From: Sulfolobales archaeon
GTDB taxonomy: Archaea > Thermoproteota > Thermoprotei_A > Sulfolobales > AG1
NCBI GenBank assembly: GCA_038867615.1
Contig: JAWBYA010000001.1
Location: 512,001 to 576,000 of the forward strand
Direction: 5' to 3'
DNA: 64,000 nucleotides
Shown here: one piece after another, positions 868 to 27,036 of the stretch
Layout: each line of letters starts with the position of its first letter
Numbering within the stretch: position 1 is the stretch's first letter
Program-made: the position numbers and the translations under genes
The notes under the pieces: generated by a model
Database searches by the model: none
Seen by the model: only the letters and a program-made list of their open reading frames with translations
Told to the model about the DNA's origin: nothing

Positions 868-1674
868 TTGGGCGAGGTAGGGCTCTATGTAGAAGGTAAG
901 AGTATTATCCACAGCCTAGACCCTAGGGTTAAGCTCCTCTGGTTCGTCTTTGTCCTGGCAGCGTCTATTGTATGTCAGTTCGACGGATCTGTCTCTCTAT
1001 TTATATTCCTATCCCTTGTGGTTGGCATGGCTCTAGCTGGGCTTCCTCTTAAGAGGCTTTTGCTCATAATAGGCTATAGCGTTGTGTTCTTCATAGTAAC
1101 GATTCTTGTGTGGGCTAGCTATTACCAGGATGTTGGGAGATACCTATTCACATTCGCCGGGGTTAGGGTTACCGATACAGGCTTGCTTGTGGGGACTGGG
1201 AAGTTCTTCCTAATAATAAACCCGATAGTATCGATGCTGATATTTTTCTCAACAGTAAAGCCCTACGATCTAGTCCAGGTTTTCTCAAGGATAGGGCTGC
1301 CCTATAAGGCTGGCTTTATGCTTCTACTCTCTCTAAGGATGCTCTCCCTAGCTGTGTCAGAGCTTAGGAATATAATGGATGTTCAGAAGGCTAGGGGTAT
1401 AGAGGTTGATTCGAGGAATCCCTTCAAGAGGGTTGCTAACCTCATCCCTGTTTTCGTACCACTTGTTATAAGGATCATGGGGCTTGCGTGGGAGCTGAGC
1501 ATAACCCTCATGGTTAGGGGTTTCGGCTATTCTAGGGAGAGGAGCTATGCATTCCCACTAAGGTGGAGCTCTAGGGATACGTTAGCCCTTATACTGATAG
1601 CAATATTCTACACAGGAATAATAGCTGTGAAGCTGGCGGGCTTCTCAACATACTACATGATCGCTGGGGTGTGA
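868..1674 (+). CDS. ecfT: ECF transporter transmembrane (T) component
   Basis: SIIHSLDPRVKL N-terminus, multiple TM segments, QKARG and MVRGF coupling motifs. Confidence 0.9.
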   Translation: MGEVGLYVEGKSIIHSLDPRVKLLWFVFVLAASIVCQFDGSVSLFIFLSLVVGMALAGLPLKRLLLIIGYSVVFFIVTILVWASYYQDVGRYLFTFAGVRVTDTGLLVGTGKFFLIINPIVSMLIFFSTVKPYDLVQVFSRIGLPYKAGFMLLLSLRMLSLAVSELRNIMDVQKARGIEVDSRNPFKRVANLIPVFVPLVIRIMGLAWELSITLMVRGFGYSRERSYAFPLRWSSRDTLALILIAIFYTGIIAVKLAGFSTYYMIAGV

Positions 1675-21986: not shown

Positions 21987-23633
21987 TTGAAATACCCCTG
22001 GAGACCTGGTTATGATCTAACAATCGATAGAATGATCAAGACGGTGTTGCATTATAACCCTGGAGGCGAGATAGTATATAGAACTAGATCAGGTGTTGAG
22101 AGGTATAGCTATTCAAAAGCCTATGAGAGGATGAACTCCCTCGCAGCAGCACTCTCAAGCATGGGTGTTAAGAGAGGGGATAGGGTTGCTACCCTCGATT
22201 GGAATACGCACTGGCATTACGAAGCATATTTCGCTATACCAATGATGGGTGCTGTTCTACATCCAGTTAATGTTAGGCTGGCTCCCAGCGAGATTGAGTA
22301 TGTTATGAACCATGCGGAGGATAGGGTTGCTATAGTGCACTCAGACTTCCTCAAGCTCTTGGAGGTTGTGGCACCGAGGGTTAAGAGTCTAGAGCATGTT
22401 ATTGTAGTCGATGCTGATAGCGCTCCTGAGAAGCTGGGGAATGCTAGGGTATATCTATACGAGGATCTCGTGAGATCCCATAGGGAGAGCTATGAGTGGC
22501 CAGAGATCTCTGAGAACGAGGTTGCTGGTATAGGGTATACTAGTGGGACTACAGGCCTGCCCAAGGGAGCGTTCTTCACACACAGGCAGATAGTTATACA
22601 CGCGATGTCTGTAGCCCTCTTCACATCCGCATCCCCCCTAATAGGGTTGAACGCATCCTCAACACTCCTCCACATAGTCCCGATGTTCCATGTATTCTCG
22701 TGGGGCTTGCCCTATGTTGCAACCCTCCTAGGGGCTAGGCAGGTCTATCCCAACAGGCTTATCCCCTCCGTCTTGTTAGAACTCATAGCTAGCGAGAGGG
22801 TTACCCACACAGCAGGGGTTCCCACGATACTCTACATGCTTCTAACAGACCCGTCGAGCCCCAAATACGATCTAAAGGGTCTGAGGTTCATAAACGGGGG
22901 CTCAGCAATGCCAGAGGGTTTGGCGGAGCTTGCTAGAAAGAGGGGTATAGAGGTTATAGTGGGCTATGGCCTGACAGAAACAGCCCCGGTTCTAACAATA
23001 GCAAGCCCCCCGCCCGGTCTGCTTAAAAGCCCCGAGCTGGGTAAACTACTCCTGAGAACCGGATGGCCAGTACCCTTAGTAGAGATAAGGGTTGTTGATC
23101 CTGGAGGAAAGCCTGTGCCGAGGGATGGGAGGACTATGGGTGAGATTGTTGTGAGAGCCCCCTGGCTAACCCCTGAATATTATAGAGATCCTGCCAAGAC
23201 TGAGGAGCTCTGGAGGGGAGGATGGTTGCATACAGGCGATATAGCAGTGTGGTTCGAGGACGGCTCTGTATTGATAATGGATAGGGATAAGGATGTGGTT
23301 AAAAGCGGAGGCGAGTGGATAAGCAGTGTGAGGCTTGAGGATGCTATAAGCACACACCCAGGCGTCTCCCAAGTCGCGGTTATAGCTGTGAGGAGTGAGA
23401 AGTGGGGTGAGAGACCCGCAGCCCTCATAGTCCCGAAACCAGAGTGGAGGGGTAAGATAACGCTTGAGGAGGTGAGGAGGCATCTCGAGGATAACTATGT
23501 TGCCAAGGGACTGATACCGAGGTGGTGGCTTCCAGACATAGTTATAGAGGTTGAGAGTCTTCCCCTAACAAGTGTAGGTAAGATTGCTAAGAGGGTGCTT
23601 AGAGAGCAGTACAAAGATCTAGTAGTTAGTTAG
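21987..23633 (+). CDS. Medium/long-chain fatty acid-CoA ligase (AlkK/DmdB-like)
   Basis: YTSGTTGLPKG, GYGLTET, WLHTGD, DRDKDVVKSGGEWISS, PLTSVGK. Confidence 0.92.
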   Translation: MKYPWRPGYDLTIDRMIKTVLHYNPGGEIVYRTRSGVERYSYSKAYERMNSLAAALSSMGVKRGDRVATLDWNTHWHYEAYFAIPMMGAVLHPVNVRLAPSEIEYVMNHAEDRVAIVHSDFLKLLEVVAPRVKSLEHVIVVDADSAPEKLGNARVYLYEDLVRSHRESYEWPEISENEVAGIGYTSGTTGLPKGAFFTHRQIVIHAMSVALFTSASPLIGLNASSTLLHIVPMFHVFSWGLPYVATLLGARQVYPNRLIPSVLLELIASERVTHTAGVPTILYMLLTDPSSPKYDLKGLRFINGGSAMPEGLAELARKRGIEVIVGYGLTETAPVLTIASPPPGLLKSPELGKLLLRTGWPVPLVEIRVVDPGGKPVPRDGRTMGEIVVRAPWLTPEYYRDPAKTEELWRGGWLHTGDIAVWFEDGSVLIMDRDKDVVKSGGEWISSVRLEDAISTHPGVSQVAVIAVRSEKWGERPAALIVPKPEWRGKITLEEVRRHLEDNYVAKGLIPRWWLPDIVIEVESLPLTSVGKIAKRVLREQYKDLVVS

Positions 23634-23938
23634 AGAACATAGGGTTAAGGCATAACATCTCCCCAGCGGAGATATGTGGGATCACGATAGCAAGGTTCCG
23701 AGGTGGTGCTAGAAGCTAAGAATCCCGGCTTAATGCTGCATTCCCACGATCTCCCTACATCTCAGGATCTTTTTCACTTTTTCCTTTCCAGCTGTAGGAG
23801 CGTGTTTAAAGATCTCTCCATATATTGGATAGCATGGATACTGTTCTCCTTACTATCGGCTCTTTTCTCTCTACATATCTTCCCGCTATGTTTATATGCG
23901 TCCTTAAGCCTTTTACTTTCAATTCTATAGTAGATCGA

Positions 23939-24125
23939 CTTGTGGGGTTATGGATTGCTGTTGAGCCTAGCGGCATGGGGCTTCCATCTACTGAGAGATC
24001 ATCCCCTGGATGGCTTGGAGCGATGCTCCCATCACCATCCAGAGTCAATATTGAGATCAAATCATCACCAAAAACCATTCCAATCAAGGCTTACAAATCT
24101 TCTGTATCGGTAAGAAAACAGCCCT
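23939..24125 (-). mobile_element. Diverged copy B of IS110-like non-autonomous element with structured RNA
   Basis: Begins AGGGCTGTTTTCTT like copy A; TTTGTAAGCCTTGA promoter-like box; aligns with 25525-25675 with compensatory stem changes. Right boundary not defined. Confidence 0.6.
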
Positions 24126-24512
24126 ATTTCTTAGCCTCAATACTCCTCGCCTCAAAGCCTAGGTATTTATCGATCATTTTGGAGAGTGTCTCCTGGAGAT
24201 CGTTATCAGCATGGCCAAGAGTTCTGCAGAATGCTACAAGACCGCTTAGCCTTATGGTCTCTATCCTAGCCTCCTCAACAAGCTGTGAGAGCCTGAACCT
24301 GAGAGAAGCCTCCCTAGATCTTAGCTCGAGAAGCCTTCTCAAAAGATCTACGCATTCCTCTCGATACAAGATCTCGCCCTCCCCTGAGCCTCATAGATCC
24401 TCCTAAGATCCTCCTCAACCTCCCTAACAGCCCTCTCAAGAGCTTCAATATTCTCCAAAGTAACCCTCAAAAGATCCTCAAGACCATTACTATCAATACA
24501 CACATCATTCAT
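24124..24512 (-). pseudogene. Uncharacterised coiled-coil protein (~130 aa) split by a frameshift, or two coupled small ORFs; downstream of the fluoride riboswitch
   Basis: ORFs 24348-24530 and 24124-24369 overlap. Adding one G near 24390 (TAT GAG GGC TCA) gives a continuous helical protein MNDVCID...RRIYE-GSGEGEILYREECVDLL...EAKK. Confidence 0.6.
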
Positions 24513-24532
24513 AGGCGCCCCCCACACCATAA

Positions 24533-24603
24533 ACAGGCGTCATCAGCCCATCACAACTCAGGGCGGTTTGGGGCCCCCAGGCCCCGGGAGGACGCCATCT
24601 CCC
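24533..24603 (-). ncRNA. Fluoride riboswitch (crcB motif)
   Basis: Minus strand reads GGGAGATGGCGTCCTCCC-GGGGCCTGGGGGCCCC-AAACCGCC-CTGAGTTGTGATG-GGCTGATGACGCCTG. It has the P1 stem GGGAG/CTCCC with the GATGG motif, the AAACCGC core, the GCTGATGAC core, and the pseudoknot GGCGTC/GACGCC. Confidence 0.9.
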
Positions 24604-24640
24604 AGCCGCGTCGAGCGGCAATAGCTATTACTCTTGAGGG

Positions 24641-24648
24641 CTTATATA
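24641..24648 (-). promoter_or_regulatory. TATA box for the riboswitch transcript
   Basis: TATATAAG on the minus strand about 40 nt upstream of the aptamer, with a small GCCGC/GCGGC hairpin in between. Confidence 0.55.
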
Positions 24649-25244
24649 GATACCCAGTTAAGTTGTTATAAAAACTAGATGTTTTGAAGGGTTCTCCTTG
24701 GTTAGTGTTTGTTCCTGGTTGTTTGTTGTCTCTTTTCTATATCTAGGGTTTCTATATGATTTTGTAGGACTGCTTGGTGAGAGACGTGCTGCTATGGTGA
24801 AGAGTGGAAATGCTGGAGAGAATCGGCTCTGTCTAGAGGAATGGTCTTTTGACAAGCTCTCTTGTTGATTCTATTAGCCATACTCCTTTTTCTTCGGCTT
24901 TCTTGGGATCGCCTATGTATTTTAGGCAATAGAGCACCATGATGACATTGCCTGTAAATTTCTCTGGCCATTTCTTTCTAGCCCTCTCAACCCTCTTTAC
25001 AAGTCTGTCAATGAGTTTCTCGCTAGCTCTTGTCTCAGCCTCGCCAACGATCACGATACCATTATGTGAGCCATATATATCGAACTCGTATCTCTTATCA
25101 AGCACAATGGATCCGAGGCTTATCTCCAAACCCTTCTCTCTTAAAAACCCCTCGACAACGATCCTAGCTTCCTCCTCGATAGAGATTGTTATGTTCTCAA
25201 GGATCCTCTCAACCCTACTAAGTCTCCTATCAATCCTGGAGACA

Positions 25245-25345
25245 CTTGCTTTCAAAGCGGAAACATCGCTCTTCAAGGTAGAAACGTCGGATTTTAGGGC
25301 TGGAACATCAGTCTTTAAAGTGGATACATCGGATTTCAGCAACCC
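25245..25345 (-). repeat. Imperfect 21-nt tandem coding repeats (LKSDVST heptads, about 5 copies)
   Basis: LKSDVST LKTDVPA LKSDVST LKSDVSA LKASVSR. Confidence 0.8.
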
Positions 25346-25432
25346 TATATCGTCTCTAATTCTTAATATATCGGTTTTTATCGCAACCAAATAGCCCTCC
25401 AGGGTTGAGAGCCTCTTATCAACTTGTTTGAA

Positions 25433-25781
25433 CCGTTTGTCCCTGGATGTTCATTCCAGTCATTTTATATTTGTTCATGGTCACATCCGGGGACTTCCAC
25501 CTCTACCCGCAGGATCAGAGAGATCCTGTGGGGTCATGGGCTGCCGTCGAGCCGAACGGCACGCGGCTCCCATCTAGCTTGTGCCCCAGACAGCTTGGAG
25601 CGCTGCTCCCATCGCCACCCGAGACCTGTGTGGGGAGACCCACACCGGGGCCAATATCTTTCAAGGCTTATAAATATCCAGGTGTTGGCGGGAGAGCGGC
25701 TTTCGGGCATGTCGCTCCCAATACTTATAAAAATTTCCAAAGCCTATTAATCCTCACTATGCATATCAAAAAGAGAACAGC
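25433..25781 (-). mobile_element. ~347-bp non-autonomous element (IS110/IS1111-like) carrying a TATA box and a multi-hairpin RNA, copy A
   Basis: Clean in-frame interruption of the host gene with no clear TSD. Weak terminal inverted similarity (13/22). Internal TTTATAAG box followed by hairpins. Degenerate MNKYKMTGMNI-(S)RDK resembling the IS110 N-terminal GIDVSKD motif. Confidence 0.7.
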
Positions 25782-26082
25782 CCTCTCTAACATAGTCGGC
25801 CAGTGCTTTGATCGCTTCAGCAATCATTCTAAGATCCTCTGACCTTGCCTCTTCAAGAGCCCTCTTAACGGCTTTCTCAACGATCTCCTCGAGGATTTTC
25901 AGATCTACGGACATCAGCGTACCAATAGTTAGTGCTTCTCTAAAACTTATATAAGCCGGGCAAGAAGGATCGCATTGAATCTATAGATCTTGGGGCTTGG
26001 GATGCGTTACTGGTTTTTGGTAACGCGCCCTGCTGAGGGCTTGCTGTGTTGCTGAAAAATATATTGGTTCACGTGATCGGTA

Positions 26083-27036
26083 TTGTGGCTGGTTGGGATG
26101 GTTGGGGTTAGGGATTTTAGTATCGAGATCGCTGGGATTGTTGAGAGGGTTAGGGATTCGGTTATAACCGTTGTTGTTGAGGCCATAGATCCTTTATCAA
26201 TGCTTGAAGCCCCTGTTAGGGGTGTTGGTTCTGGCTTCATAGTTGGTGAGGATCTCGCTCTAACGAATAGCCATGTTGTTGGCTCTGCTATCGAGGCTAG
26301 GGTTATCTATAGCGATGGTGAGGTTGGTGTTGGCAGGGTTCTTGCCAGGGATCCTTACAGGGATCTAGCCCTCCTCGAGGTTGAGAGTAGGGGTAGGCGT
26401 GTTAGGATGGGTGATTCTGATAAGGTCAGGATAGGAGAGCTTGTAATAGCCCTCGGATCCCCTCTCGGGATGCCTGGACCCTCGGTAACGCTCGGTGTTG
26501 TTAGTGCTAGGGGTAGGACTATTGTTGCTGATGAGGGGAGAATCGTTCTCGAAGATCTCATACAGACAGACGCTGCAATAAACCCAGGCAACAGCGGTGG
26601 TCCTCTAATCAACATGGACGCCGAGGCTATAGGCGTCACAACAGCCATGATCCCATTCGCACAGGGAATAGGCTTCGGAATACCCATAAACCATGCCAAG
26701 AGATTCATAACACTGATCTCTAAATACGGGAGACCAGTGAGAGCATGGATCGGTGTCTTCGTAGCACCACTAACACCAGAGATCGCGAGAATGATGGGGC
26801 TCGAAAAAGCAAAAGGAGTAGTTGTCATCAGAACAATCCCCGGAAGCCCTGCAGAAGCCGTCGGAATAAGGAGGGGTGATGTGATCCTCAAGGCAGGGGG
26901 TAGGGAGATCTCAACGCCTGGGGATCTGAGAAACACTATAGAGGATAGCATAGATAGGGGAGAGATCGAGATAGAGCTTGTTAGAAGAGGCTATGTAAGG
27001 GTAGTGAGCGTTCCAATCATTATCGAAGAGCTTTGA
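26083..27036 (+). CDS. HtrA/DegP-like trypsin serine protease with PDZ domain
   Basis: GSGFIV, LTNSHVV, DLALL, IQTDAAINPGNSGGPL, C-terminal PDZ; no obvious signal peptide. Confidence 0.92.
   Translation: MWLVGMVGVRDFSIEIAGIVERVRDSVITVVVEAIDPLSMLEAPVRGVGSGFIVGEDLALTNSHVVGSAIEARVIYSDGEVGVGRVLARDPYRDLALLEVESRGRRVRMGDSDKVRIGELVIALGSPLGMPGPSVTLGVVSARGRTIVADEGRIVLEDLIQTDAAINPGNSGGPLINMDAEAIGVTTAMIPFAQGIGFGIPINHAKRFITLISKYGRPVRAWIGVFVAPLTPEIARMMGLEKAKGVVVIRTIPGSPAEAVGIRRGDVILKAGGREISTPGDLRNTIEDSIDRGEIEIELVRRGYVRVVSVPIIIEEL

Follow-up and report, generated by a model that had tools for sequence, protein, structure and literature searches.

Elements that carry tnpB encode an 'omega RNA' at the 3' end of that gene, its guide being drawn from the sequence that flanks the element (PMC10055086; PMC4615843). 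Derived from elements of this kind are the PATEs (palindrome-associated transposable elements); gene-less relatives of IS605 without inverted repeats or target duplications, some of which, in the archaeon Haloquadratum walsbyi, are described as having arisen when IS605-type elements lost their core (PMC3119063), and which in Geobacillus stearothermophilus are said to 'often encode omega RNAs', needing TnpB from other elements in trans (PMC10055086).

The window analysed here, a 64,000-nt stretch of the genome of a Sulfolobales archaeon, contains a 347-nt insert that closely resembles such elements. Like PATEs it has no protein gene, no inverted repeats and no target duplication, and its ends are those of a tnpB-bearing element, as though the core had been deleted and the two ends fused; the omega-RNA region that it appears to keep would have to use a TnpB supplied in trans. 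Unlike the PATEs cited above, it resides in a hot-spring archaeal host, has the promoter and start of tnpB fused directly to the omega-RNA scaffold, lies next to a G-rich left-flank motif (GGG), and belongs to a genome in which, as in three close relatives, we find no Y1 TnpA. It shares with the archaeal IS1341-group elements (sotRNA/omega RNA; PMC4615843) a TnpB-only parent with a structured RNA lying over the 3' end of the gene, but differs from them in that the window's copy has lost tnpB and in that the parental tnpB reading frame continues past the right end. We therefore interpret the insert as a gene-less, non-autonomous IS200/IS605 element of the IS1341 (tnpB-only) group, that is a PATE, with its promoter and omega RNA retained; a reading to which we assign a probability of about 0.88. 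A literature search, judged by titles and abstract openings, found no paper on this element family or host group.

In what follows G000 denotes the element's own genome, G001-G003 genomes of the same genus (to which G004 also belongs), C a contig and L a fetched locus. The gene and the element that interrupts it are laid out as follows:

25781 to 25914, minus strand: 5' part of the host gene, MSVDLK...ADYVREG (open reading frame 25747-25914); N-terminus identical in homologue P0002
25434 to 25780 (alternatively 25435 to 25781), minus strand: inserted element, 347 nt; matched elsewhere in the genome, co-linear with the ends of a tnpB element, and missing from empty alleles
24833 to 25433, minus strand: 3' part of the host gene, FKQVDKRL... 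to the stop; DUF8196 (PF26618) family, with a coiled-coil repeat region

The insertion splits a DUF8196 gene that runs along the minus strand (24833-25914). The product begins MSVDLKILEE...ADYVREG, the upstream half ending ...GCC GAC TAT GTT AGA GAG GGC, at which point the reading frame enters foreign sequence and meets a stop 10 codons later; the frame FKQVDKRLSTLEGYL... picks up again 347 nt downstream, in another phase, with TTC AAA CAA GTT GAT AAG. The two halves are out of frame with each other (compare the codon phases of 25914 and 25432), and removal of 347 nt joins them. A protein search with the C-terminal part (199 aa) returned 251 homologues, the best of which carry the precomputed domain PF26618 (DUF8196); a Pfam search of the window's own copy gave weak coiled-coil matches only. 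The nearest full-length homologues are P0002 (244 aa; 87% identical where it aligns with the C-terminal part), P0003 and P0004 (251 aa); all are uninterrupted and read ...ADYVREGFKQVDKRL... or ...ALADYVREGFKQVDKRLSTLE... across the site. Close homologues of the host protein are labelled Desulfurococcaceae/Sulfolobales; the host is a hot-spring archaeon.

Empty alleles, for which the original prediction had proposed a search, are found both in a same-genus genome and in a metagenome. In G003 the flanks are contiguous, with query positions 1-134 aligning to C15:162050-162183 and positions 481-1082 to C15:161428-162050; on the sense strand of the gene the site reads GTTAGAGAGGGGTTCAAACAAG, i.e. 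GGG and then GTTCAAACAAG.... From the hot-spring metagenome run X7, one contig joins position 25433 to position 25781 and skips the 347 nt; among contigs of the four DNA runs examined (X5-X8) this joint is seen in X7 only, and we place no interpretation on the parts that the contigs leave uncovered. The claim of a clean 347-bp insertion whose deletion restores the frame is thus borne out by the intact homologues and by both empty alleles, and inactivation of the DUF8196 gene by the element forms part of our overall explanation, held at the same level of confidence.

Exact restoration of the frame, taken together with the orientation of the element in the sense of the host gene, also fits an archaeal intron-like element that the bulge-helix-bulge endonuclease would remove from the mRNA, so leaving the gene functional, by analogy with bacterial IStrons. 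Two sources lend this some substance: omega RNAs are reported to occur as circular isoforms in archaea (PMC12558985), and IStrons show that a TnpB element can be combined with splicing (10.1101/2023.11.20.567912). We nevertheless regard it as highly improbable. The duplex that the two junctions could form (-16.2 kcal/mol) is matched or bettered by 33% of shuffled sequences (-14.6 ± 3.1 kcal/mol), and in the minimum free energy fold the junctions pair locally rather than with each other; furthermore, once the element is taken out, only three of 17 copies (15 gene-less and two tnpB-bearing) have an ORF of 100 aa or more running across the junction, and the family therefore lies mostly outside genes.

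The precise ends of the element are ambiguous by 1-2 nt, because a run of G sits at the junction and three placements restore the frame. We inspected eight pairs of occupied and empty sites: the present insertion, five G002/G003 loci compared with G000, and two G000 loci compared with G003/G002. Four of the pairs are clean (the present insertion, L055, L059 and L004) and four too diverged at the junction (L044, L051, L061 and L013). Over the clean pairs the originally predicted ends, 25433-25779 (TGTT...AAACGG), incur five mismatches, against one for each of the two placements shifted by 1-2 nt (C-TGTT...AAACN and GC-TGTT...AAAC); the element is best placed at 25434-25780 or 25435-25781. Target duplications, of which the same prediction had seen no clear sign, are absent from all four clean pairs, and the X7 joint agrees with a simple insertion.

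There are no terminal inverted repeats: the inverted-repeat pairs detected in the element are all internal hairpins and none links the two termini. At the right end, a 12-nt hairpin is formed by 25439-25450 with 25483-25494; the left end displays just a short palindrome, TATGCATA, and a hairpin there is uncertain. Strict MITEs are likewise small, multi-copy and non-autonomous, but with neither terminal inverted repeats nor a target duplication the insert is excluded from that class.

Searching the genome with the terminal 60 and 70 nt allowed the boundaries to be compared across the family, with 13 of 20 matches kept for left ends and 35 of 40 for right ends. Every one of the 35 right ends stops at ...CCAGGGACAAAC plus two bases (GG in 26, AG in four, TG in two, GA in two and CG in one), and the flanks diverge beyond; the left ends are preceded by GGGC in 12 of 13 cases and by AGGC in the other, the sequence further upstream being random. 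The ends of the family thus take the form GGG|CTGTTTTC at the left and CCAGGGACAAAC at the right. Judged from the empty sites, the GG(G) before the left end is host sequence, such that a conserved target motif, a candidate TAM, adjoins the left end only, with no conservation further out. Insertion has occurred within a run of G (GGG^G), with a weaker G/T preference directly 3' of the right end (a weak preference for T after the cut), unlike the textbook IS608-type target; the target rule known from IS608 would not lead one to expect a preference on that side.

In IS607 the core dinucleotide is GG. A derivative of that type, with a serine recombinase exchanging strands at the GG dinucleotide, would account for the GG found in or beside each junction (GGGC on the left side, AAACGG on the right), and elements of the IS607 type also carry tnpB (PMC10055086). 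Exchange at a 2-nt core, however, predicts an empty site with GGG, whereas GGGG is seen in G003 and X7 at this locus, as well as in two other pairs. The sole serine recombinase of the genome, a single PF00239 match at C23:6616-7053, is unlinked to the family and has the layout of a resolvase/invertase, the catalytic domain coming first and followed by a C-terminal HTH-like tail; in IS607 TnpA the DNA-binding domain is N-terminal. We consider an IS607 origin very unlikely, and discount this recombinase as the transposase of the family.

The insert belongs to a sizeable repeat family. Against its own 2.22-Mb, 28-contig genome, blastn returns 49 matches, 13 of which, the insert itself included, span it from end to end; the self match aside, these copies are 67-89% identical to the insert. 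Many further copies, up to 95% identical, are present in the same-genus genomes G002 and G003, and the last ~185 nt of the element recur in many genera of the order. Insertions are polymorphic among G000, G002 and G003 in both directions, and the family has therefore moved after those lineages split. Over 1142 nt, one copy and its flanking sequence agree at 99.65% identity among these three genomes (G000:C7:66977-68118; L052 in G002; L053 in G003), other regions that they share being about 84-97% identical; this suggests either recent exchange or a shared assembly source.

At two places in the genome, matches to the left and right ends lie some 1.5 kb apart. The first (C1:783-2279) encloses an open frame of 463 aa, whilst the second (C2:203164-204652) holds the same gene broken in two. 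This frame, the sole gene of the ~1.5-kb 'parent', encodes a TnpB: it matches PF07282 (Cas12f1-like TNB domain; E = 5.6e-11) and TIGR01766 (IS200/IS605 TnpB-related; 2.4e-15) above their cut-offs, matches NF040570 (RNA-guided endonuclease TnpB) at 5.5e-24 over positions 43-388 of 389 with a score of 85 bits, below the NCBI cut-off of 100, and weakly matches structures of Cas12f1 (2.3e-4). By eye, we take VDVN, LEDL and RDVVACYN to be its three RuvC-like motifs. The tnpB reading frame runs through the right end of the element and into the flank. With the TnpB protein as query, 31 matches are found in the genome: one full-length and open, one broken by stop codons (on C2), two cut short where a contig ends, one an internal fragment (C1:526508-526825) that contains stops, and, for the remainder, short C-terminal remnants, i.e. 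the miniature elements. A single intact tnpB (G000:C1:754-2142) thus stands against some 35 right ends with omega-RNA regions.

These relatives settle the family assignment, for which the original prediction had favoured a non-autonomous IS110/IS1111 element with a bridge (seek) RNA, to be mobilised by a DEDD recombinase in trans. Its outline holds well: the insert is miniature and non-autonomous, lacks a target duplication, and contains a structured RNA as well as a box resembling a promoter; the TTTATAAG box and the hairpins that it named are all present and are conserved in other copies, with compensatory changes. Absence of a target duplication and possession of a guide RNA (here a predicted one) are indeed traits of IS110/IS1111 elements. 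The family itself is another matter, and we now view an IS110 origin as extremely unlikely. No DEDD recombinase is found, with PF01548 (DEDD_Tnp_IS110) and PF02371 (Transposase_20) giving no match in the 94%-complete genome whilst hitting control genomes, and every longer relative carries tnpB; a search for full-length IS110 copies, as had been proposed, leads to TnpB elements instead. The architecture and the position of the RNA differ too: the bridge RNA of IS110 elements is encoded in their non-coding end, on the upstream side of the recombinase, whereas the RNA here sits at the opposite, right end and runs over the 3' coding part of the parental tnpB, which is where omega RNAs are encoded. 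The peptide that had been read as a decayed IS110 N-terminus (KMTGMNIQGQT, compared by eye) matches the C-terminal tail of the parental TnpB, ...KMIGMNIQGQTV. Copies tied to a non-IS110 transposase and flanked by target duplications had been named as grounds for abandoning the IS110 assignment: the full-length copies do carry TnpB, target duplications being absent.

Alignment of the insert to the tnpB-bearing parent separates it into the following parts:

25727 to 25781, minus strand: left end, element positions 1-53, common to the tnpB-bearing parent; flank GGG(C)
25667 to 25674, minus strand: TATA-box-like TTTATAAG, an archaeal motif from the tnpB promoter, facing the omega-RNA region
25622 to 25655, minus strand: remnant of the tnpB start (first ~11 codons), aligning with parental ...TTGGTGGGCTGCTTCCCACAAGCATCCC at the start of tnpB; contains the hairpin GTGTGGG/CCCACAC at 25628-25645
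25435 to 25621, minus strand: predicted omega-RNA scaffold, element positions 159-345, corresponding to parent positions 1309-1497; overlaps the 3' end of tnpB and terminates in ...CCAGGGACAAAC
25415 to 25433, minus strand: host sequence beyond the right end, matching the empty allele; putative guide if the RNA reads through as in characterised TnpB elements (PMC10055086), going by the position of the right end

Both ends of the insert are common to the element at C1:783-2279. In a global alignment, positions 1-53 of the insert correspond to positions 1-53 of the parent (83% identical) and positions 159-347 to parental positions 1309-1497; the stretch between them is also parental, and when 26 copies are aligned together with the parent it proves to be the promoter and start of tnpB. 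Because the ends and the intervening stretch all align to the parent, the insert is, on this comparison, an internal-deletion derivative of a tnpB element, in which the tnpB promoter would now face the last ~190 nt of the parent. The TTTATAAG motif is found at the aligned position exactly in 15 of the 26 rows and loosely in 23, three of the rows being one orthologous copy in three genomes; in the parent, tnpB starts ~20 nt beyond the TATA-like box, and in the insert the remnant of that start lies about as far downstream. The TTTATAAG motif recurs at 25724-25731. A sigma-70 promoter scan gave no sites, though it looks for a bacterial signal that is not relevant to an archaeon.

The parent (L010; G000:C1, 1-2470) carries at ~79-105 a near-repeat of its own terminus, ATGGGC TGTTTCTCTATTGATGCTATAGGG, which could serve as an alternative left end.

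The predicted omega-RNA region is strongly structured, and comparison of copies reveals covariation within it. We drew a secondary structure from the window's copy and scored it on a MAFFT alignment of 41 distinct copies from at least eight genomes, the rows comprising loci of G000, G002 and G003 plus seven loci of other genomes that cover the region. The structure has 50 pairs in seven helices, and 86.9% of cells are paired, a share that falls to 30.4-42.7% once the partners are displaced by 1-3 columns; in this control the structure is favoured by having been drawn from one of the scored rows. Pairs changed on both sides number 17 of 50, compared with a mean of 11.2 in shuffled alignments, and none of 500 shuffles reached as high a count; as the rows are related by descent, these shuffle counts should not be read as probabilities. 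The pair counts are, if anything, conservative, since some rows have one arm of helix 6 misaligned by MAFFT. Compensatory changes are clearest in the first helix, in helix 4, where columns 67/77 hold A-U, G-C, C-G, U-A, G-U and U-G, and in the terminal helix, for which four distant copies have CTCCC/GGGAG in place of GTCCC/GGGAC. A proposed pseudoknot helix is weakly supported (71.7% of cells paired). RNAalifold independently found four of the helices, and the fold of the single sequence (-97.6 kcal/mol) is more stable than those of its shuffles (-78.1 ± 5.1 kcal/mol; z = -3.85).

Searches of Rfam, run on the window at gathering thresholds and on 23500-26100 at E <= 10, placed no family inside the insert, the one real hit being a fluoride riboswitch nearby, and a tRNA scan of the window found none. 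The label of omega RNA is therefore a prediction drawn from position, structure and linkage to tnpB, and the most likely role of the structured RNA is to guide a protein provided in trans. By eye, the internal loop GAUGGGAGC...GCUCCAAGC resembles a possible kink-turn, for which we make no claim.

It has also to be asked whether the element is simply a dead relic, with neither it nor its RNA expressed or used, and any conservation reflecting recent common descent alone. The copies are 66-95% identical, so most of them are old; the genome retains one intact tnpB and yields no TnpA match, and three of the 26 aligned copies lack even a loose TATA match. Set against this are the compensatory changes that hold the helices together across copies and genera (17 of 50 pairs), which argue for selection on the structure of the RNA, at least in tnpB-bearing lineages, and the insertions that are polymorphic, in either direction, among same-genus genomes. 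We consider the relic reading unlikely, but deserving of some weight.

Returning to the preferred reading of a gene-less tnpB derivative that retains its promoter and omega RNA, we can propose a sequence of events. A tnpB element of ~1.5 kb would have lost nearly the whole tnpB reading frame by internal deletion, so that there remained its left end, the promoter of tnpB (the TATA box) and some 11 initial codons, and a final stretch of ~190 nt with the omega-RNA scaffold and right end; this derivative would then have entered the DUF8196 gene just 3' of the GGG motif, without duplicating its target. From its new position the tnpB promoter may transcribe the scaffold and read a few nucleotides into the host beyond the right end, thereby supplying a guide. 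The intact TnpB of G000 (C1:754-2142) could bind this RNA in trans and cut empty copies of the site, with repair from an occupied copy then preserving the element at its site. For the element to be excised and inserted, a transposase, classically Y1 TnpA, would have to act in trans.

No match to Y1 TnpA (PF01797) is found in G000 (94% complete) or in the same-genus genomes G001-G003, the assemblies being 86-96% complete, and this counts against the preferred reading; the enzyme may reside in unassembled sequence. Across the 41 genomes searched, Y1 TnpA is present in six. The intact Y1 gene of the genus, in G004, lies inside a different IS605 that has no blastn similarity to the element family. 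When the parent was compared by blastn with seven Y1 TnpA loci of relatives, six gave no match, and the 100-nt match in the seventh (L069, in G005) represents a related element inserted in the tnpA of another IS605; a nested insertion rather than a linkage, such that we reject these loci as partners of the family. This nested copy (L069, G005:C3, ~1100-1600, minus strand) is itself a related miniature, with GGGC followed by TGTTTCAG..., a TATA box and an omega-RNA-like core.

In the G004 locus (L065; G004:C18, 1447-3355), where the IS605 has its intact Y1 tnpA, the tnpB frame is interrupted by ~270 nt (roughly 2681-2954), which may be another small insertion. The locus adjoins a LysE-type gene whose homologue in G000 neighbours the intact tnpB of the element family.

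A more radical idea is that the family moves without Y1 TnpA, its spread being driven by some other enzyme or by TnpB itself together with promoter-driven miniature omega RNAs. The basis for this lies in the dozens of copies in G000-G003, in their polymorphic insertions, in the lack of any Y1 match in those four genomes, in an insertion site within a G run that departs from the IS608 pattern, and in TnpB being the only protein linked to the family; we hold it to be quite unlikely. Were it true, the G-rich motif at the left flank would be an unusual TAM for a thermophilic TnpB.

What looked at first sight like an oddity is, on our reading, a gene disrupted in the ordinary way by a mobile element whose class is known, with its family assignment corrected. 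It nonetheless offers a natural TnpB example from a thermophilic archaeon, with miniature copies in which a tnpB promoter is fused to a guide-RNA scaffold, and with exact empty and occupied alleles that can be used to define the ends and flanking motif. The absent transposase adds a further case to the old question of how tnpB-only elements spread, and the G-rich flank motif of a thermophile's TnpB, if proven to be a TAM, could be of interest for genome editing.

Elsewhere in the window, a fluoride riboswitch (RF01734; 46.9 bits, E = 7.5e-10) is detected at 24527-24611 on the minus strand, upstream of small minus-strand ORFs (24348-24530 and 24124-24369) that encode coiled-coil-like peptides, with no obvious CrcB/fluoride exporter. 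On the plus strand, 14508-14825 matches TnpB residues 161-263 at 50% identity with four in-frame stops, and represents a decayed remnant of tnpB. The window also holds a second relative of the insert:

23938 to 24128, minus strand: truncated second relative, 1.4 kb from the insert; GGGCTGTTTTC left-end-like motif, TTTGTAAG box and an omega-RNA region reduced to its 5' two-thirds, without a right end

This diverged copy was not flagged by a window-wide repeat search; it was spotted in ORF translations and then confirmed by alignment and blastn. By blastn, C1:535941-536040 aligns to insert positions 160-253 at 73% identity, and the TnpB protein matches C1:535905-536051. The copy begins at the inner GGGCTGTTTTC motif, which resembles the repeat inside the left end of the parent (~79-105).
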